NCBI GenBank assembly: GCA_035575515.1
Contig: DATLXU010000127.1
Location: 97,356 to 161,355, forward strand
Source of the DNA: Blastocatellia bacterium
GTDB taxonomy: Bacteria > Acidobacteriota > Blastocatellia > UBA7656
Direction of reading: 5' to 3'
Length of the DNA: 64,000 nucleotides
Below are positions 37,360 through 50,273 of the stretch, piece after piece (position 1 is the first letter of the stretch; each line of letters begins with the position of its first letter). A program made the translations under genes and the position numbers. Under the pieces are notes generated by a model that was not told the origin of the DNA, did not search any database, and was given only the letters and a program-made list of their open reading frames with translations.

Positions 37360-39846
37360 TCAGATGATTTTTTGTGCCACTTGAAGCACGCGCCAGTATG
37401 CGCGGCGAGCAACGCCGGGCCAGCTTCCGTTCAACACGGGCGTGGCGCGCGTCGCCGCTGATTCGTTCCAGCGGTTAGACCAGCCCGATAAATCCCACAG
37501 CAGGTCTGCGCCCTTCAAACCTAAATTTGTTAATTGCTCAGTCGGGCTGCGACCATTGGGCGGATAGCGATCCGCGTCTTTTTCGTCGCCGAATTTATTA
37601 TCGTGAATCCAGTTGTTTTCGGGCGTGGGACCGACATCGAAAGCCGTCCCCTTCGGAAAGATTATTTCGAGACTCACGACCGCGACGCCGAAGCTGTTGT
37701 TGCCGCAGACCGTGTTAGCGGTGACTTCGGTATTGTCTGCGGCCATTATCAAAATGCCCGTGCCCGGCTGAACGTTCGACACGATGGCGTTCGGATTGCC
37801 GAAGTTGACATGGTTATTAGCAATCACTCGATTGTTGCGAACGATGCAATCGCGCCCGACCTTCGAGACGTTGTTCGGCAGCACGAAAACCAGTATGCCG
37901 CCCGTGTTGTTCGTGACTTCGTTTTCTTCGACGACAGCGTTGATTGAGTTTTCAATCTCGATGCCGGTGACGCTGTCGTGAGCTTTGCATCTTCTGACAG
38001 CAATATCGCGCGACTGGCCAACGTAAATCGCGGCGTCGGCTATGCCTGACGCTTCAACATCTTCGATCGTCACGCCCGTGCAGCTCACGGGATAAACGCC
38101 GTACAGCCCCGTCTTATCAACTCGCAAATTGCGAAAGAGAGGGCGGAAGGCGTGCTGCACGACAACGCCGTTTGCGGTGTAGTTCTTCACGTCGAAGTTT
38201 TCGATGTGAAAATCGCTGCCCGTCGCAATCACCGCGTCGGACAAAATATCCTTCCCGTCGAAGACTGGCCGCGATGGATTTGATTGCGCATCGGTCGCTC
38301 CGATCAAAGTTATGCGGTCAAGATCAACGCTGATTGATTCGTGATAAACACCGGGCATGACGCGGATCGTATCGCCGGGTATCGCGCGATTGACCGCATC
38401 TTGAATTGACTCGCCCGACTTCACAGTGATCGTCTGCGGCTCGCTGCGGTTGGCGAACTGCTCGGCGGGCGAACCTGTGTTGAATTGCCGGGCAAGCTCG
38501 CGCGCAGGATTGTTCAATCGTGGCACGACGACGAGGCCCGAAGGCACGCGGTCGGGAATCTGCGGCAGATTCGATTCATCCGTGAGCGCGTAGAGGAACG
38601 CAATCAAATCCTGCTTCTCTTCTTTGGTGATCGTGTAGGTGTGAATCTTGTCGTCAATGCGAATCGTTTTTGCCTCAAGCCCGCGTTTGAATTCGTCGGA
38701 AAGCTCGCTTTTGAACGGCTCGCCTGAGCCTCCACCTGCGGCGTAAAAATCGAGCACCTCTTCGAGAGTCTTAAAGCGACCGTTGTGCATGTAAGGCGCG
38801 TTGAGCGCGACGTTGCGGAGCGTCGGCACTTTGAAGGCGAACTTGTTGCCTTCGCCCTTTGTCACGTCGAAGCGACCGAGATCGGGTTGCTTCGCATCGG
38901 TATCGGGCACGCCAATTATTTTGAAATCGCGGTTGGCAAACGTCGGCAGCCCGTGACACTCAAAGCAGCGCGTGCGGCCTGATCGAAACAGGTTGAAGCC
39001 GCGAATCTGCGACGCAGTGAGCGCCGTGCGGTCACCATTGACGTAGCGATCAAAGGGCGAATTGTTGGCCGTAAGCGTCCGCTCGAACGCGGCTATCGCT
39101 TTGACGACGTTATCGAACGTTACGCCTGCGCCGTCGCTTGCGCCGAAAGCTGAGTCGAACGCTTTCGCGTATTCAGGGATGGCTTTGAGTTCGCGAACGA
39201 GGTTGTCGGGGTCTTCGGCCATCTCGTCGGCGCTTGTGATCGGGCCTCTGGCCTGTTCTTCGAGGTCTGCGGCACGGCCATCCCAGAATTGCATGTGATT
39301 ATAAGCCGCGTTCCAGATAGTCGGCGCGCTGCGACGTATCGCGGTTCCGCCCGCGCGCTCAGGCCCAAGCCCGCGCCCGCCTCTGCCCATCGAGAGCGGG
39401 CGCGCGTCTGTGAATCCAAGGTCGGGATGATGACACGTCGCGCAGGAGATGTCATTTGCGCCCGAAAGAATTGGATCGAAGAATAACAAGCGGCCAAGCG
39501 CGACGCGCTCGTTGAACTTTGGATTATTGATGTCGTTGTCTGCGCGAACGACCATCGCGGGGAACGGGCGGCGAAGCCCGCCGCCGCCTTCCGCAACGCC
39601 CGCCGTGCCTTCATCGCCCACGAAGTCTTTCGGCATAGGCCACAGACCAAGAGCGAGCAGCGTGGCGAAGATAAGGGCGAGCGGTATGAAAATCCATTTC
39701 ATCCAGCGGCGTCGCGACCGGGCGCGCGGCTGGCTTTCTTCCATCTCGATTTGTTGCGCAGATGCGGTCATAGGGTTCGTGCCTCCGTGATGAATCGAAA
39801 GAAAGCTGAGAAGCGGCCAAGCGATTATATTGAACGCGCCGCGCAA
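37360..39846 (-). CDS. Di-heme cytochrome c peroxidase (CCP/MauG family) fused to a C-terminal right-handed parallel beta-helix (NosD/pectin-lyase-like) domain
   Basis: Two CxxCH motifs (CATCHH, CFECHG) in a CCP-like fold with PYMHNG; C-terminal ~350 aa of 22-25-residue beta-helix repeats ([29 protein letters not shown]). Confidence 0.75.
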
Positions 39847-40042: not shown

Positions 40043-40447
40043 ATGAATAATAGAAGAGAACTGAAGAGCGAGTACAAACAAACCCATACAAGGATGGGCG
40101 TCTATCAAATACGCAGCCTCGTCAACGGCAAAGTATTGATAGGCGTCGCGCTCAATCTGACGGGTATTCTCAACAGCAATAGATTCCAGCTTGAGATGGG
40201 AAGCCACGCGAACCGAAAGCTCCAAGCTGAGTGGAAAGAATTTGGCAGCGAAAATTTCGCATTTGAAGCGCTGGACGAACTCGCGGCGACCGAAGGAGCA
40301 GATTACGATTATAAGCCTGACCCGGCGTTCCTTGAGGAGATGTGGCTTGGGAAGTTGGAGCCTTACGGCGAGCGCGGGTATAACGAAAAGAAAAAAGGTA
40401 GAGAAGAAAAACTGAGGCAGATAGCGCGGAATCGCATGAGCAATTAA
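40043..40447 (+). CDS. Stand-alone GIY-YIG nuclease-domain protein
   Basis: GVYQIRSLVNGKVLIGVALNL...RF...H.NRKLQAEWKEFG matches the GIY-YIG catalytic core (cf. I-TevI GIYQIKN..NKVYVGSA...R...H); low-GC neighbourhood. Confidence 0.6.
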   Translation: MNNRRELKSEYKQTHTRMGVYQIRSLVNGKVLIGVALNLTGILNSNRFQLEMGSHANRKLQAEWKEFGSENFAFEALDELAATEGADYDYKPDPAFLEEMWLGKLEPYGERGYNEKKKGREEKLRQIARNRMSN

Positions 40448-40487: not shown

Positions 40488-42065
40488 TTGATGCAGGTAT
40501 CAAAGCGCAGTAAGAAGTTTGATTTTATGTTGAAGAAATTTTTCGCTCTACTGTTTATCGCAGCCGCCTTTGGTTTCGTCGCGTTCAACGCGCGCACGAT
40601 GAGCGCGGCTGCCGCTGATGCGCCAACGTTCAGTAACGAAGTCGTTCGCATCTTTCAACGCAACTGCCAGGTCTGCCATCACGCGGGCGACATCGCGCCG
40701 TTTTCGCTGATGAGCTATCAGGAGGCGCGGCCCTACGCTTCGCGCATAAAAGAAAAAACCGCATCGCGTGAGATGCCGCCGTGGAAACCTGTACCCGGGT
40801 GCGGCGAGTTTGAAGGCGAGCGAAGATTAACCGACGAAGAGATTGACACCGTCGCGCGATGGGTTAATGCGGGCGCGCCCGAAGGCAACTCATCGGATTT
40901 GCCTGAGCCTTTACGGTTCGATGGCGGGTGGACCATCGGCCAGCCCGATTTGGTATTGCAGCCTGACGCGGACTACACGGTGAAACCGGGCAATGATGTT
41001 TATCGCTGCTTCTCGATTCCGACAGACCTGCGCGGCGACCGCTACGTTTCTGCGGTTGAAATCAAGCCGGGCAATCGCGAGGTTGTTCATCACGTCATCA
41101 TCTATCTCGACACGACGGGCGAATCAAAGCGGCTCGACGACGCAGACCCTGAGCCGGGCTACACTTCATTCGGCGGGCCGGGCTTTGCCGCGACGGGCAC
41201 GCTCGGCGGTTGGGCTCCCGGCGCTCGCGCGCGGTACGAACCCGACGGCAACGGTTGGCTTCTGCCCAAAGATGCGCGCGTCGTGATTCAGGTTCACTAT
41301 CATCCGCACACGGCTGATTCGGAAACTGATCGCACGCAGATAGGTCTTTACTTCGCGCGCAAGCCCATTGTTAAAGACATTCAGGTGCTGCCGCTCATCA
41401 ACACAAACTTTTCGATTCCGGCGGGCGACCCGCACTATCGAGTCACGGCTTTGGCCATCATCCCGCCCGGCGCAAACGCTCACATTCTCGGAATCGCGCC
41501 ACACATGCACCTGCTCGGACGCGAAATGAATGTCGAAGCGCGATTGCCGAATGGTACGACCGAGTGTCTCATCAACATTGACGATTGGGACTTTCACTGG
41601 CAGGGAGTTTATTACTACAAAGAGCCTGTCGCGATCACGCCGTTCACGCAGTTGAGCCTCACAGCTTATTACGACAACTCTGTGAACAATCCGCGAAACC
41701 CGAATTATCCTCCGAAGACTGTTACGTGGGGCGAGCAGACTACGGATGAGATGTGCATCGCATTTTTCCTTTTCACACTCGACGGGCTGAACCATACGCC
41801 ATCATTGCCGCAACTCAACGACGTTTCAGTTGATACGAATGGCAGGTTGATTGTGAGCGGCAGAGGATTTTCGGCGGGCGCGGATATTTTGATTGACGGC
41901 GAGCGCGTACGCGACACCGTGAATCATAAAAAGAAGAAGAAAGCCGAAAAGCAACTCATCTCGAAAGAGGACTGGCAGCGGCTGGCTCCGCCCGGAAAGC
42001 AGGTTATGGTGAGCGTTCTAAACACCGACGGCGTGACGACTGCGACTCTGTCGTTTATGCGATAG
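40488..42065 (+). CDS. Secreted mono-heme cytochrome c domain fused to a PHM/DBH-like copper type II monooxygenase (paralog 1); probable start at 40527
   Basis: N-terminal CQVCHH...MPPW heme-c module (planctomycete-cytochrome-like); His/Met ligand pattern HH(VIIY) - HYHPH - HMH - TTDEMC with PHM-like ~65-75-aa spacing. Confidence 0.65.
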   Translation: MMQVSKRSKKFDFMLKKFFALLFIAAAFGFVAFNARTMSAAAADAPTFSNEVVRIFQRNCQVCHHAGDIAPFSLMSYQEARPYASRIKEKTASREMPPWKPVPGCGEFEGERRLTDEEIDTVARWVNAGAPEGNSSDLPEPLRFDGGWTIGQPDLVLQPDADYTVKPGNDVYRCFSIPTDLRGDRYVSAVEIKPGNREVVHHVIIYLDTTGESKRLDDADPEPGYTSFGGPGFAATGTLGGWAPGARARYEPDGNGWLLPKDARVVIQVHYHPHTADSETDRTQIGLYFARKPIVKDIQVLPLINTNFSIPAGDPHYRVTALAIIPPGANAHILGIAPHMHLLGREMNVEARLPNGTTECLINIDDWDFHWQGVYYYKEPVAITPFTQLSLTAYYDNSVNNPRNPNYPPKTVTWGEQTTDEMCIAFFLFTLDGLNHTPSLPQLNDVSVDTNGRLIVSGRGFSAGADILIDGERVRDTVNHKKKKKAEKQLISKEDWQRLAPPGKQVMVSVLNTDGVTTATLSFMR

Positions 42066-48386: not shown

Positions 48387-48884
48387 ATGGGACTGAATGA
48401 AATAATCATCGGAGAACTGAAGCATGAAGCAAATACAACAAGAAAACTGCTTGAGCGTGTGCCGGAACCGGCTCTCGGCTGGAAGCCGCACGAGAAATCA
48501 ATGTCGTTGGGAAGGCTCGCAGGCCACGTCGCAGAGCTTCCCGGATTGATCGTTCCAATAGTCAACCAGGATGAACTTGATTTCGCTTCGGGCGATTACA
48601 AGCCATTCACACCGACCAGCAGATTCGAGTTGTTGGAGGTGTTCGACAAAGCTCTCTCAATGGCCGTTGATGCATTGCAAACGGCGACCGACGAACAGCT
48701 ACAAAAAACTTGGCGGCTGAGAAGCGGTGATAAAGTTTTCGGCGAGTTGCCACGAATAGCGATGATTCGCGGGCTGGTGCTGAACCACATTATTCACCAT
48801 CGCGGGCAGCTTTCGGTTTACCTGCGCTTGCAGGACGTGCCGCTGCCTTCTATCTACGGCCCTTCGGCTGACGAGCCGATGTAA
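48387..48884 (+). CDS. DinB/YfiT-like (DinB_2) superfamily protein, tandem paralog
   Basis: [10 protein letters not shown]...[14 protein letters not shown] features. Confidence 0.6.
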
Positions 48885-50273
48885 TGGCAGTAATCTAACG
48901 ATTTTCGGATGAGTGACCGCGATTGCGGCAACATTCGATTCGCAATAAAATGGCGAGCCGCGTTCGAGCGCCTCGCCATTCTGTTTTTGAGAGAGCGGCG
49001 CTGCTTGAAGATTCTGACGGTCTAGCGTGAAGCCGACGAAACCTATCATCATCTCTTCCCAAGTCTGCTGGCCCCATCGAACTGTCTTCGTAGGATCAGG
49101 ATTCCACTTGTTCTTTGCAGAATTGTCAAAGTGCGCGAGGCATTCGAGCCGACTGCCCTTCGGAGCCGCAATCGGCTCTTTCAGTTCATAACGAGTTTGC
49201 CAGTTGAAATCATATCGCGGCACTTTCAAGATGATTTTCGATGTGCCGTCGGGATAAACGAGGCGGTACTCGAAATCTTTTCCGCGAAGGTGCATATGCG
49301 GCATCAACGAAAAGATGTGCGCGTCTTCTTTGAACGTATAGCTTGAGCGCGCTTCGTAGTTTTCATCTCCCGGCGGAATTGCGAACCAGCGATTGATAGC
49401 CGCGCCGCCGCGCGCTTCTTTCGCGACGGGCTTGCGGCTGAAAATAATCCCTATCGAAGTGCGGTCTTTTTGCGGCGTTCCGTTCGGCGTGTAGTGCATT
49501 TGAAGCACAAGCATCGAGCCTGCTTTGATGAGCCTCCCTACGCCGTCCGGCAAAATCACAGGCTCCTCTCCGGGAGCCGTGCCTACGAGAGCATCAATTC
49601 CGCCCTCGTTTGAAAAGACGCGCGGCCTTCCTTTGAATGCGTCAGGGCTTACGACAAAGACGATGACGTGATGAACGACTGCCGAGTTGCCGGGTCGCAC
49701 CTCTGCGGCTTGCACCCAGCGGTCTTCGGTGAAGTTCGTCGGCACGAAGAAGTATTGATAGCGCACCGTGCCTTCAGCGGGAACCGAGTACTCCTGCGCC
49801 ATGCTCAACACGACGTCGGGCTTGCCTATACGCCAGCCTTCGGTGAATTGCGGCGCTGGCGGCAAGTCTTTCGGGTTGCCTTCTTTTGCGCCCGCGTCAA
49901 CCCACGCGACTATCGTGTCAATCTCTGTCTTTGTGAGGCGGCGGTCATTTTTGAAATTGCCATAGCGCGGGTCGGCGTGCCATGGAGGCATCACTCCGTC
50001 GAGGACTTTTTCGCGGATTGACTTGGCCCATGGGCGCGCGTCCTTGTAAGTCATAAGCGACATCGGCGCGATGCTGCCCGCGCGGTGGCACTCGACGCAG
50101 TGCTTATAAAATATCGGCGCAACGTCTTTCGTGAAAGTGACGGGCGATTTTGAAGCCCCAGTGCTGCTTCCCGAAACGCCAAGCGCGGTAAACGCGAAAA
50201 CAACCGCCGCGCCTATCGTTAATCGAAGAGCGCTTTTCATGGACTCGCCTCCTTTTCGCTTTATCGCATTCAT
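48699..50273 (-). CDS. Cytochrome c::PHM/DBH-like copper monooxygenase fusion (paralog 2); probable start at 50240; the 3' end likely aberrant, since the ORF reads through the terminator into the antisense DinB gene
   Basis: CVECHRAG...MPPW heme module; HHVIVFV, HYTPNG, PHMHLRG, TWEEMM ligand pattern collinear with paralog 1; the last ~100 codons have no counterpart in paralog 1. Confidence 0.6.
48948..48995. terminator. Bidirectional Rho-independent terminator
   Basis: aaaatggcgag-ccgcgttcgagcgc-ctcgccatt followed by ctgttttt; A-run on the opposite side. Confidence 0.65.

Follow-up and report, generated by a model that had tools for sequence, protein, structure and literature searches.

A 64,000-nucleotide stretch of Blastocatellia bacterium contig DATLXU010000127.1 (assembly GCA_035575515.1, positions 97,356 to 161,355 of the forward strand; hereafter the window) encodes two related proteins, designated P1 and P2, in which a signal peptide and a mono-heme cytochrome c module precede a copper core of the type found in peptidylglycine alpha-hydroxylating monooxygenase (PHM) and dopamine beta-hydroxylase (DBH). 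P1 and P2 are, with high confidence, heme-c-fused members of the PHM/DBH fold in which both copper sites, CuH and CuM, are intact. We favor the reading, with a probability of roughly 0.6, that the two paralogs diverged long ago and are exported oxidoreductases with three cofactors, located in the periplasm or at the cell surface, which act as cytochrome-fed CuH/CuM monooxygenases on one or more substrates other than peptidylglycine. The domain combination is already readable from the annotation by Pfam and by the Prokaryotic Genome Annotation Pipeline (PGAP), and the subject is an uncharacterized family, not a new fold or principle. It is a real and very large bacterial branch of a classic enzyme family, equipped with a different electron-input module.

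The two open reading frames (ORFs) given by an initial annotation of the window were both present in the ORF list, with P1 at 40488-42065 on the forward strand (525 residues, opening with TTG) and P2 at 48699-50273 on the reverse strand (524 residues). P1 and P2 share 39% identity along 445 residues (E = 1e-96), and a family hidden Markov model run on the six-frame translation found exactly these two copies in the 64-kb window. The starts first assigned had to be moved, as the true starts are likely internal, at ATG 40527 for P1 and at ATG 50240 for P2. Translated from ATG 40527, P1 has 512 residues and is 100% identical to the NCBI product P0001, which is named 'ascorbate-dependent monooxygenase [Blastocatellia bacterium]'. 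The sequence upstream of the P2 start at ATG 50240 is AAAGGAGG. Residue numbers refer to the 512-residue P1 unless the numbering of the 525- and 524-residue ORFs is stated. The parts of the two genes are as follows.

40527..42065, forward strand: P1 gene, 512 residues from ATG 40527 within an ORF open from TTG 40488; stop codon at 42063-42065
40527..40619, forward strand: Sec-type signal peptide of P1, about residues 1-31, MLKKFFALLFIAAAFGFVAFNARTMSAAAAD
40620..40880, forward strand: mono-heme cytochrome c domain of P1, residues ~32-118
40944..41366, forward strand: N-terminal beta-sandwich of the P1 core with the CuH-type site, H188 and H189 (41088-41093) and H257 (41295-41297)
41367..41786, forward strand: C-terminal beta-sandwich of the P1 core with the CuM-type site, H326 and H328 (41502-41510) and M409 (41751-41753)
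41808..42062, forward strand: IPT/TIG-like Ig-fold domain of P1, residues ~428-512, with a Lys-rich loop of low confidence inside
48978..50240, reverse strand: conserved part of P2, residues 1-421 from ATG 50240, comprising signal peptide, cytochrome c and copper core
48699..48977, reverse strand: C-terminal extension of P2, ~92 residues plus stop, overlapping the 3' end of a forward-strand DinB gene

The copper core was recognized by its motifs, by profile comparison and by its predicted structure. In the numbering of the 525-residue ORF, P1 carries CQVCH at 60-64, MPPW at 96-99, HH at 201-202, HYH at 270-272, HMH at 339-341 and DEMC at 420-423; in that of the 524-residue ORF, P2 carries CVECH at 59-63, MPPW at 95-98, HH at 201-202, HMH at 326-328 and EEMM at 406-409. 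The DEMC and EEMM motifs named in the initial annotation are present, and the ligand spacing of about 65, 65 and 75 residues that it proposed is close to the 68, 69 and 81 residues found in P1. Its middle motif, H-x-H, was present in P1 (HYH); P2 has a single His there, in 'QMHYT'. Conservation was evaluated in an alignment of 136 full-length representatives picked from the top matches, with rows about 30-56% identical to P1. At the middle motif the first His was kept in 135 of the 136 relatives and the second in 93, and a single conserved His at this place agrees with PHM, in which H172 alone is the ligand. The CuH ligands H188, H189 and H257 were kept in 133, 135 and 135 relatives, respectively, and the CuM ligands H326, H328 and M409 in 135, 134 and 134. 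The ligands of P2 are H190/H191/H249 at CuH and H315/H317/M397 at CuM.

A profile made from the 136 diverse relatives matched rat PHM across both domains with an E value of 6e-16 and DBH with 1.6e-8, and the family motifs VHH, QVHY, PHMH and DEMC aligned on H107/H108, H172, H242/H244 and M314 of PHM. Two Pfam models, for the N- and C-terminal halves of the copper core, had been proposed as a check. The C-terminal model Cu2_monoox_C (PF03712) scored 29.6 bits in P1 and 24.8 bits in P2, both over its curated cut-off of 23, and was matched by 18 of 21 relatives at E ≤ 0.01; the N-terminal model stayed under its cut-off in both proteins. Since Cu2_monoox_C passed its cut-off in both proteins and the family profile matches rat PHM, the motif pattern is far beyond chance. 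No meaningful match was obtained with NCBIfam profiles.

The AlphaFold2 model of P1 had a mean predicted local distance difference test (pLDDT) score of 94.3 and a predicted template modelling (pTM) score of 0.89. A Foldseek search with this model returned human DBH first (E = 3.8e-15), followed by about 30 PHM entries (E = 1e-13 to 1e-10, probability 1.0), and the next matches, viral jelly-rolls and PNGase, appeared only at E > 1e-6. The model contains two jelly-roll beta-sandwiches that superpose on PHM or DBH. The P2 model had pLDDT values of about 85-97 over residues 30-413 and the same secondary-structure pattern as P1. Structure prediction, which had been suggested as a further check, therefore gave the paired beta-sandwiches of the PHM/DBH-like fold, confidently in P1, and the PHM-type pattern of CuH and CuM ligands and the fold read in the initial annotation are borne out by Pfam Cu2_monoox_C, the profile alignment and the AlphaFold2 and Foldseek results.

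In the heme module ahead of this core, P1 has a CxxCH motif at C47/C50/H51 (codons 40665-40679) and, as the presumed distal ligand, M83 of MPPW (40773-40775); the corresponding residues of P2 are C48/C51/H52 and M84. C47, C50 and H51 were kept in 135-136 of the 136 relatives and M83 in all of them, so the mono-heme CxxCH...MPPW module that had been described for both proteins is not only present but nearly fully conserved. The cytochrome was likewise present in every one of these full-length representatives. M83 is the probable axial ligand of the heme together with the CxxCH histidine, and the module shows a three-helix cytochrome c fold. The planctomycete cytochrome (PSCyt) models suggested for checking did not match; Cytochrome_CBB3 and Haem_bd matched weakly instead. 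Sixteen of the 21 relatives matched the Pfam cytochrome model at E ≤ 0.01. A weak profile match to hydrazine synthase alpha (E = 0.005), confined to the heme segment, was dismissed as generic heme-motif similarity. The linker between cytochrome and core is near-invariant at W112, G116, G120, W135, G138, P140 and D141, which suggests a fixed cytochrome-core interface and not a loose tether.

Covalent attachment of c-type heme takes place only outside the cytoplasmic membrane. Once the internal ATGs are used, both proteins open with a typical Sec-type signal peptide, as had been claimed for them. That of P1, read from its sequence, has a basic n-region, a hydrophobic h-region and an Ala-rich c-region, and AlphaFold2 modelled it as a single N-terminal helix over residues 2-29.

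We consider it plausible that the cytochrome serves as a built-in electron donor to CuH, and this is the most likely mechanism for P1 and P2. A coupling to the respiratory chain, as the initial annotation suggested, would likewise be plausible. The heme would take single electrons from a periplasmic carrier and hand them to CuH, in the role that ascorbate has in the animal enzymes, and CuH would hand them on to CuM. O2 would be activated at CuM, and one of its oxygen atoms would enter a C-H bond of the substrate. PHM/DBH enzymes serve as the textbook case of 'non-coupled binuclear copper' monooxygenases, and all characterized members known to us are eukaryotic and use ascorbate. How electrons cross the solvent gap of ~11 Å from CuH to CuM in these enzymes is still debated (general background, and PMC12164859).

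Compared with PHM, the catalytic core of PAM (PDB 1PHM, 1OPM, 1SDW), P1 and P2 have the HH...H of CuH, the HxH...M of CuM and the D-E-M-C context in register, and the Cys next to the CuM Met is also found in P1. Unlike PHM, they are bacterial, exported by a signal peptide and fitted with an N-terminal c-type cytochrome, with only 15-20% identity to PHM; their electron source is presumably the heme and not ascorbate. They lack the R240/N316/Y318 anchors and the lyase partner of PHM and have invariant motifs of their own, WDFxWQxxY and DNSxxNxxNP. DBH, tyramine beta-monooxygenase and MOXD1 (PDB 4ZEL) form a second group for comparison. Like DBH, P1 is multidomain, with an extra domain before and after the core, but an N-terminal cytochrome c with covalent heme stands in place of the DOMON domain, an IPT/TIG-like C-terminal domain in P1 stands in place of the DBH dimerization domain, and the family occurs in bacterial phyla only. 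Tethered cytochrome c donors to copper are known from subunit II of caa3-type oxidases and from three-domain copper nitrite reductases, for example that of Ralstonia pickettii. P1 and P2 would share with them the design of a class-I cytochrome c fused to a copper enzyme for intramolecular delivery; those proteins contain a cupredoxin, not the PHM jelly-roll, their chemistry is unrelated, and the likeness is a functional analogy only.

The duplication that separates P1 from P2 is old, since each of them has its own orthologue group. Seventeen positions are fixed differently between the two lineages, and eight of these lie within 4 residues of a metal ligand, against a chance expectation of about 2.7 (hypergeometric P = 0.002). 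The fixed differences are concentrated at the HxH and Met motifs of CuM, including P1 positions 323, 324, 330, 410 and 412, and the residue after the CuM Met is Cys in P1-type proteins, as in PHM, and Met in P2-type proteins. P1 and P2 probably act on different substrates.

The family to which the two proteins belong is very large. A phmmer search of 1.84 billion representatives clustered at 50% identity returned 17,266 matches at E ≤ 1e-3. Of these, 10,761 reached E ≤ 1e-10, and 3,644 reached E ≤ 1e-30. In a scan of GTDB species genomes, which gave at least 600 loci, the best 80 came from the Acidobacteriota groups Thermoanaerobaculia, Blastocatellia, Bryobacterales and Terriglobia, as well as Planctomycetota, Armatimonadota, Rokubacteria, Poribacteria, Verrucomicrobiota, Hydrogenedentota and Sumerlaeia; one cultured isolate, Tundrisphaera sp. 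TA3, was among them. Tandem arrays with five copies in a Blastocatellia metagenome-assembled genome (L083) and four in another locus (L085), each within 17 kb or less, point to paralog expansion. Public names for the family are inconsistent and range over 'ascorbate-dependent monooxygenase', 'c-type cytochrome', 'cytochrome c', 'thiol-disulfide isomerase', 'redoxin domain protein', 'mono/diheme cytochrome c family protein' and 'hypothetical'. A literature search, whose full-text coverage was incomplete so that absence is no proof, turned up no publication describing a bacterial family of cytochrome c-PHM/DBH-like proteins, and a 2025 review of copper-mediated peptide processing mentions neither prokaryotic homologues nor cytochrome c (PMC12164859).

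P1 and P2 show the minimal architecture of the family, as do about 41% of the representatives. About 40% carry an N-terminal AhpC/TSA-Redoxin domain of ~200 residues ahead of the cytochrome (for example P0130, P0131, P0132, P0138, P0139 and P0142). Such redoxin-cytochrome c-copper monooxygenase relatives (P0130, P0132, P0138), which go by the public names 'thiol-disulfide isomerase' or 'redoxin domain protein', share the cytochrome c and the copper core with P1 and P2 at 40-50% identity, whereas P1 and P2 have only the signal peptide ahead of the cytochrome. The redoxin domain is without CxxC in 57 of 59 cases and has the consensus T-x-C-P-x-S, with a conserved G-C further on. Further add-on domains in relatives are EF-hands and a G8 domain with a CEMIP beta-helix. 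The polypeptides P0121 (1064 residues) and P0131 (1251 residues) each contain two complete cytochrome-copper units, and in P0121 EF-hand motifs follow each unit.

The surroundings of P1 and P2 were inspected for partners and for clues to the substrate, as had been proposed. The window is ordinary chromosome; N-terminal sequences read by eye suggest Kdp genes between 14 and 21 kb, and genes of translation and the ribosome at about 56-60 kb. Genes identified by Pfam near P1 and P2 encode a CCP_MauG-NosD fusion, two DinB proteins, a JAB domain protein and a 3-keto-disaccharide hydrolase. ORF translations presumably also place here PsuG and GlgC, which are backed by orthologous loci, and a VanX-like dipeptidase, an M48 peptidase and MoaD/MoaE. 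The fusion gene has the following coordinates.

37360-39846, reverse strand: CCP_MauG-NosD gene, 828 residues, a di-heme cytochrome c peroxidase/MauG domain (Pfam E = 2e-59) joined to a NosD/right-handed beta-helix

No conserved operon partner was found by ORF clustering with a crude ORF caller over 85 loci, which came from a search with a 21-sequence alignment, or in six orthologue contexts (P0002, P0010, P0094, P0060, P0004 and P0013), and the neighborhood offered no clue to the substrate. The top 'neighbor' cluster over the 85 loci was an antisense-ORF artifact of the family gene itself, and the strongest true neighbor, a generic ABC ATPase, occurred in 11 of 85 loci at varying distances. 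A link to a respiratory complex was likewise absent from the neighborhood in the window, the orthologue contexts and the 85 loci. The CCP_MauG-NosD gene, which is divergent from P1 and beyond which a MIP channel gene lies, was rejected as a functional partner; apart from the window, this arrangement was seen only at the locus of the nearest orthologue (L001, 68% identical), so that the linkage looks like local synteny. PsuG and GlgC, downstream of P1, are local Blastocatellia synteny and recur only among close relatives in that group. A small ORF just 3' of P1 (42185-42475, forward strand, 96 residues) has an RR-containing signal-like N-terminus (RRSVVGAILPAAALGLALPKRARA) and no Pfam match; tested as a partner, it proved to have no homologue in any of 88 related loci. 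Another ORF (40043-40447, forward strand, 134 residues) separates P1 from the CCP_MauG gene, with no Pfam match at E ≤ 1e-3, whose N-terminal 'GVYQIRSLVNGKVLIG' bears, by eye only, a GIY-YIG-type resemblance. A scan for promoters and terminators around P1 stayed at background level. The enzyme appears to be self-contained, without a conserved operon partner.

At the C-termini the two paralogs differ. The extra domain of ~80 residues noticed in P1 proved to be a genuine, conserved beta-sandwich of about 85 residues, with an Ig-like fold that superposes on IPT/TIG domains, and it may bind or tether the enzyme to a polymer or surface. P2 equals P1 in length only through an unconserved tail, the conserved protein being about 420 residues long. 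P2 orthologues listed at about 415-420 residues (61-79% identical) span only ~81% of P2, six aligned orthologues all stop near P2 residue 421, the last ~92 residues are unconserved, and the tail was modelled with pLDDT values of 20-60. Its coding sequence shares 186 nt with the DinB gene at 48387-48884 on the opposite (forward) strand, which is intact, since its Pfam DinB match reaches profile position 157 of 165. No contig encoding the exact P1 product was found; a 513-residue product identical to P2 with its tail (P0270) is recorded on 7 contigs, and for this reason the tail is probably a real, lineage-specific loss of a stop codon and not an assembly error.

Several explanations other than a cytochrome-fed monooxygenase were weighed. 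That P1 and P2 are true bacterial PHMs amidating secreted peptides is the least probable of them, for all the correspondence of their ligands with those of PHM. The anchors R240/N316/Y318 are replaced by A324/I411/F413 in P1 and by M/I/F in P2, in columns that vary over the 136 relatives; identity to PHM is low; no PAL-type lyase (NHL propeller) was found in P1, in P2, among the ORFs annotated at 37-53 kb or among the recurrent neighbors of the 85 loci, and the same ORFs at 37-53 kb did not include a gene for a precursor peptide either. Because the anchors are replaced and no lyase-like gene lies nearby, P1 and P2 are not peptide-amidating, and their substrate is therefore not peptidyl-glycine. 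The initial annotation had called the substrate unknown, and with the glycine-carboxylate residues of PHM not conserved, that description stands. Electrons might also flow the other way, with a substrate oxidized at the coppers and the fused cytochrome c passing the electrons to the respiratory chain, as in a copper dehydrogenase. A His/Met-type cytochrome c could act as such an acceptor and the periplasmic location is compatible, yet the Met ligand of CuM and the separation of the two copper sites are suited to activating O2, linked respiratory genes were not found, and we know of no PHM/DBH-fold member that runs electrons outward; reverse flow is very unlikely. The chance is just as slight that the proteins merely keep the fold, as copper-binding or copper-buffering proteins or as redox sensors. 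No activity has been shown and the genes stand alone, but the heme motif and the six copper ligands are kept near-perfectly in 136 relatives at ~40% identity, together with dozens more near-invariant residues, as is seen in active enzymes that purifying selection maintains.

The main rival, unlikely in our judgment but well ahead of those just named, is a heme-copper oxidoreductase that hydroxylates no organic substrate and instead reduces O2 (to H2O2 or H2O), H2O2 or nitrite at CuM, either as an accessory terminal reductase or for scavenging or detoxification in the periplasm. It would account for the lack of a conserved substrate-related neighbor, and entry titles of PHM crystal structures name nitrite, azide, CO and O2 at the copper sites. 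The fusion of ~40% of the relatives to an AhpC/TSA-type domain, a peroxiredoxin fold, speaks for it as well; this domain, however, mostly lacks CxxC, and its T-x-C-P-x-S differs from the canonical peroxiredoxin motif. A common small substrate would also be expected to leave many polar residues near-invariant in all paralogs, as they are here, among them those of WDFxWQxxY and DNSxxNxxNP. Against this rival, the full set of three His and two His plus Met is characteristic of hydroxylating enzymes of the non-coupled binuclear copper type, the fixed paralog differences cluster at CuM, and several diverged paralogs per genome with arrays of four or five copies fit substrate diversification better than one housekeeping reaction.

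Some of these observations, and others, count against a cytochrome-fed monooxygenase. The near-invariant polar motifs could mean one common small substrate and not diversified organic ones. The fused redoxin is a monothiol thioredoxin-fold domain whose role the monooxygenase reading leaves unexplained, and nothing in the analysis points to a substrate or to the upstream electron donor. Cytochrome_CBB3 scored only 18.7 bits in P1 and 20.2 bits in P2, both under the cut-off of 27, which the relatives P0131 (37.1 bits) and P0121 (34.1 bits) passed. Cu2_monooxygen (PF01082), the N-terminal copper model, scored 25.0 bits in P1 and 16.3 bits in P2 against a cut-off of 30 and was matched by 13 of the 21 relatives at E ≤ 0.01; even so, both the profile-to-PHM alignment and the structural matches extend over the N-terminal core domain. 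Heme and copper occupancy of P1 and P2 are themselves predictions.

If the cytochrome-fed monooxygenase is the right reading, PHM/DBH-type chemistry would be widespread in environmental bacteria, and the inconsistent public annotation of the family could be corrected. Studies of intramolecular transfer would gain an optical handle in the redox state of the heme, and electrons would enter at a defined point. The family would also point to an oxidative activity so far unrecognized in abundant soil phyla, located in the periplasm or at the cell surface, and its many paralogs suggest that the range of substrates is broad. We put forward tentatively, as a possibility at clearly less than even odds, that the family is a vast clade (more than 17,000 clusters at 50% identity) of ascorbate-independent PHM-type monooxygenases with a tethered cytochrome c, spread with many diversified paralogs through Acidobacteriota, Planctomycetota, Armatimonadota and related phyla of soil and water and hydroxylating extracellular polymers, peptides or small aromatics and amines. 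In bacteria, such enzymes would correspond to the pair that cellobiose dehydrogenase (CDH) and lytic polysaccharide monooxygenase (LPMO) form in fungi, and the long-debated electron transfer from CuH to CuM could be set off and observed by way of the heme in a naturally occurring system.

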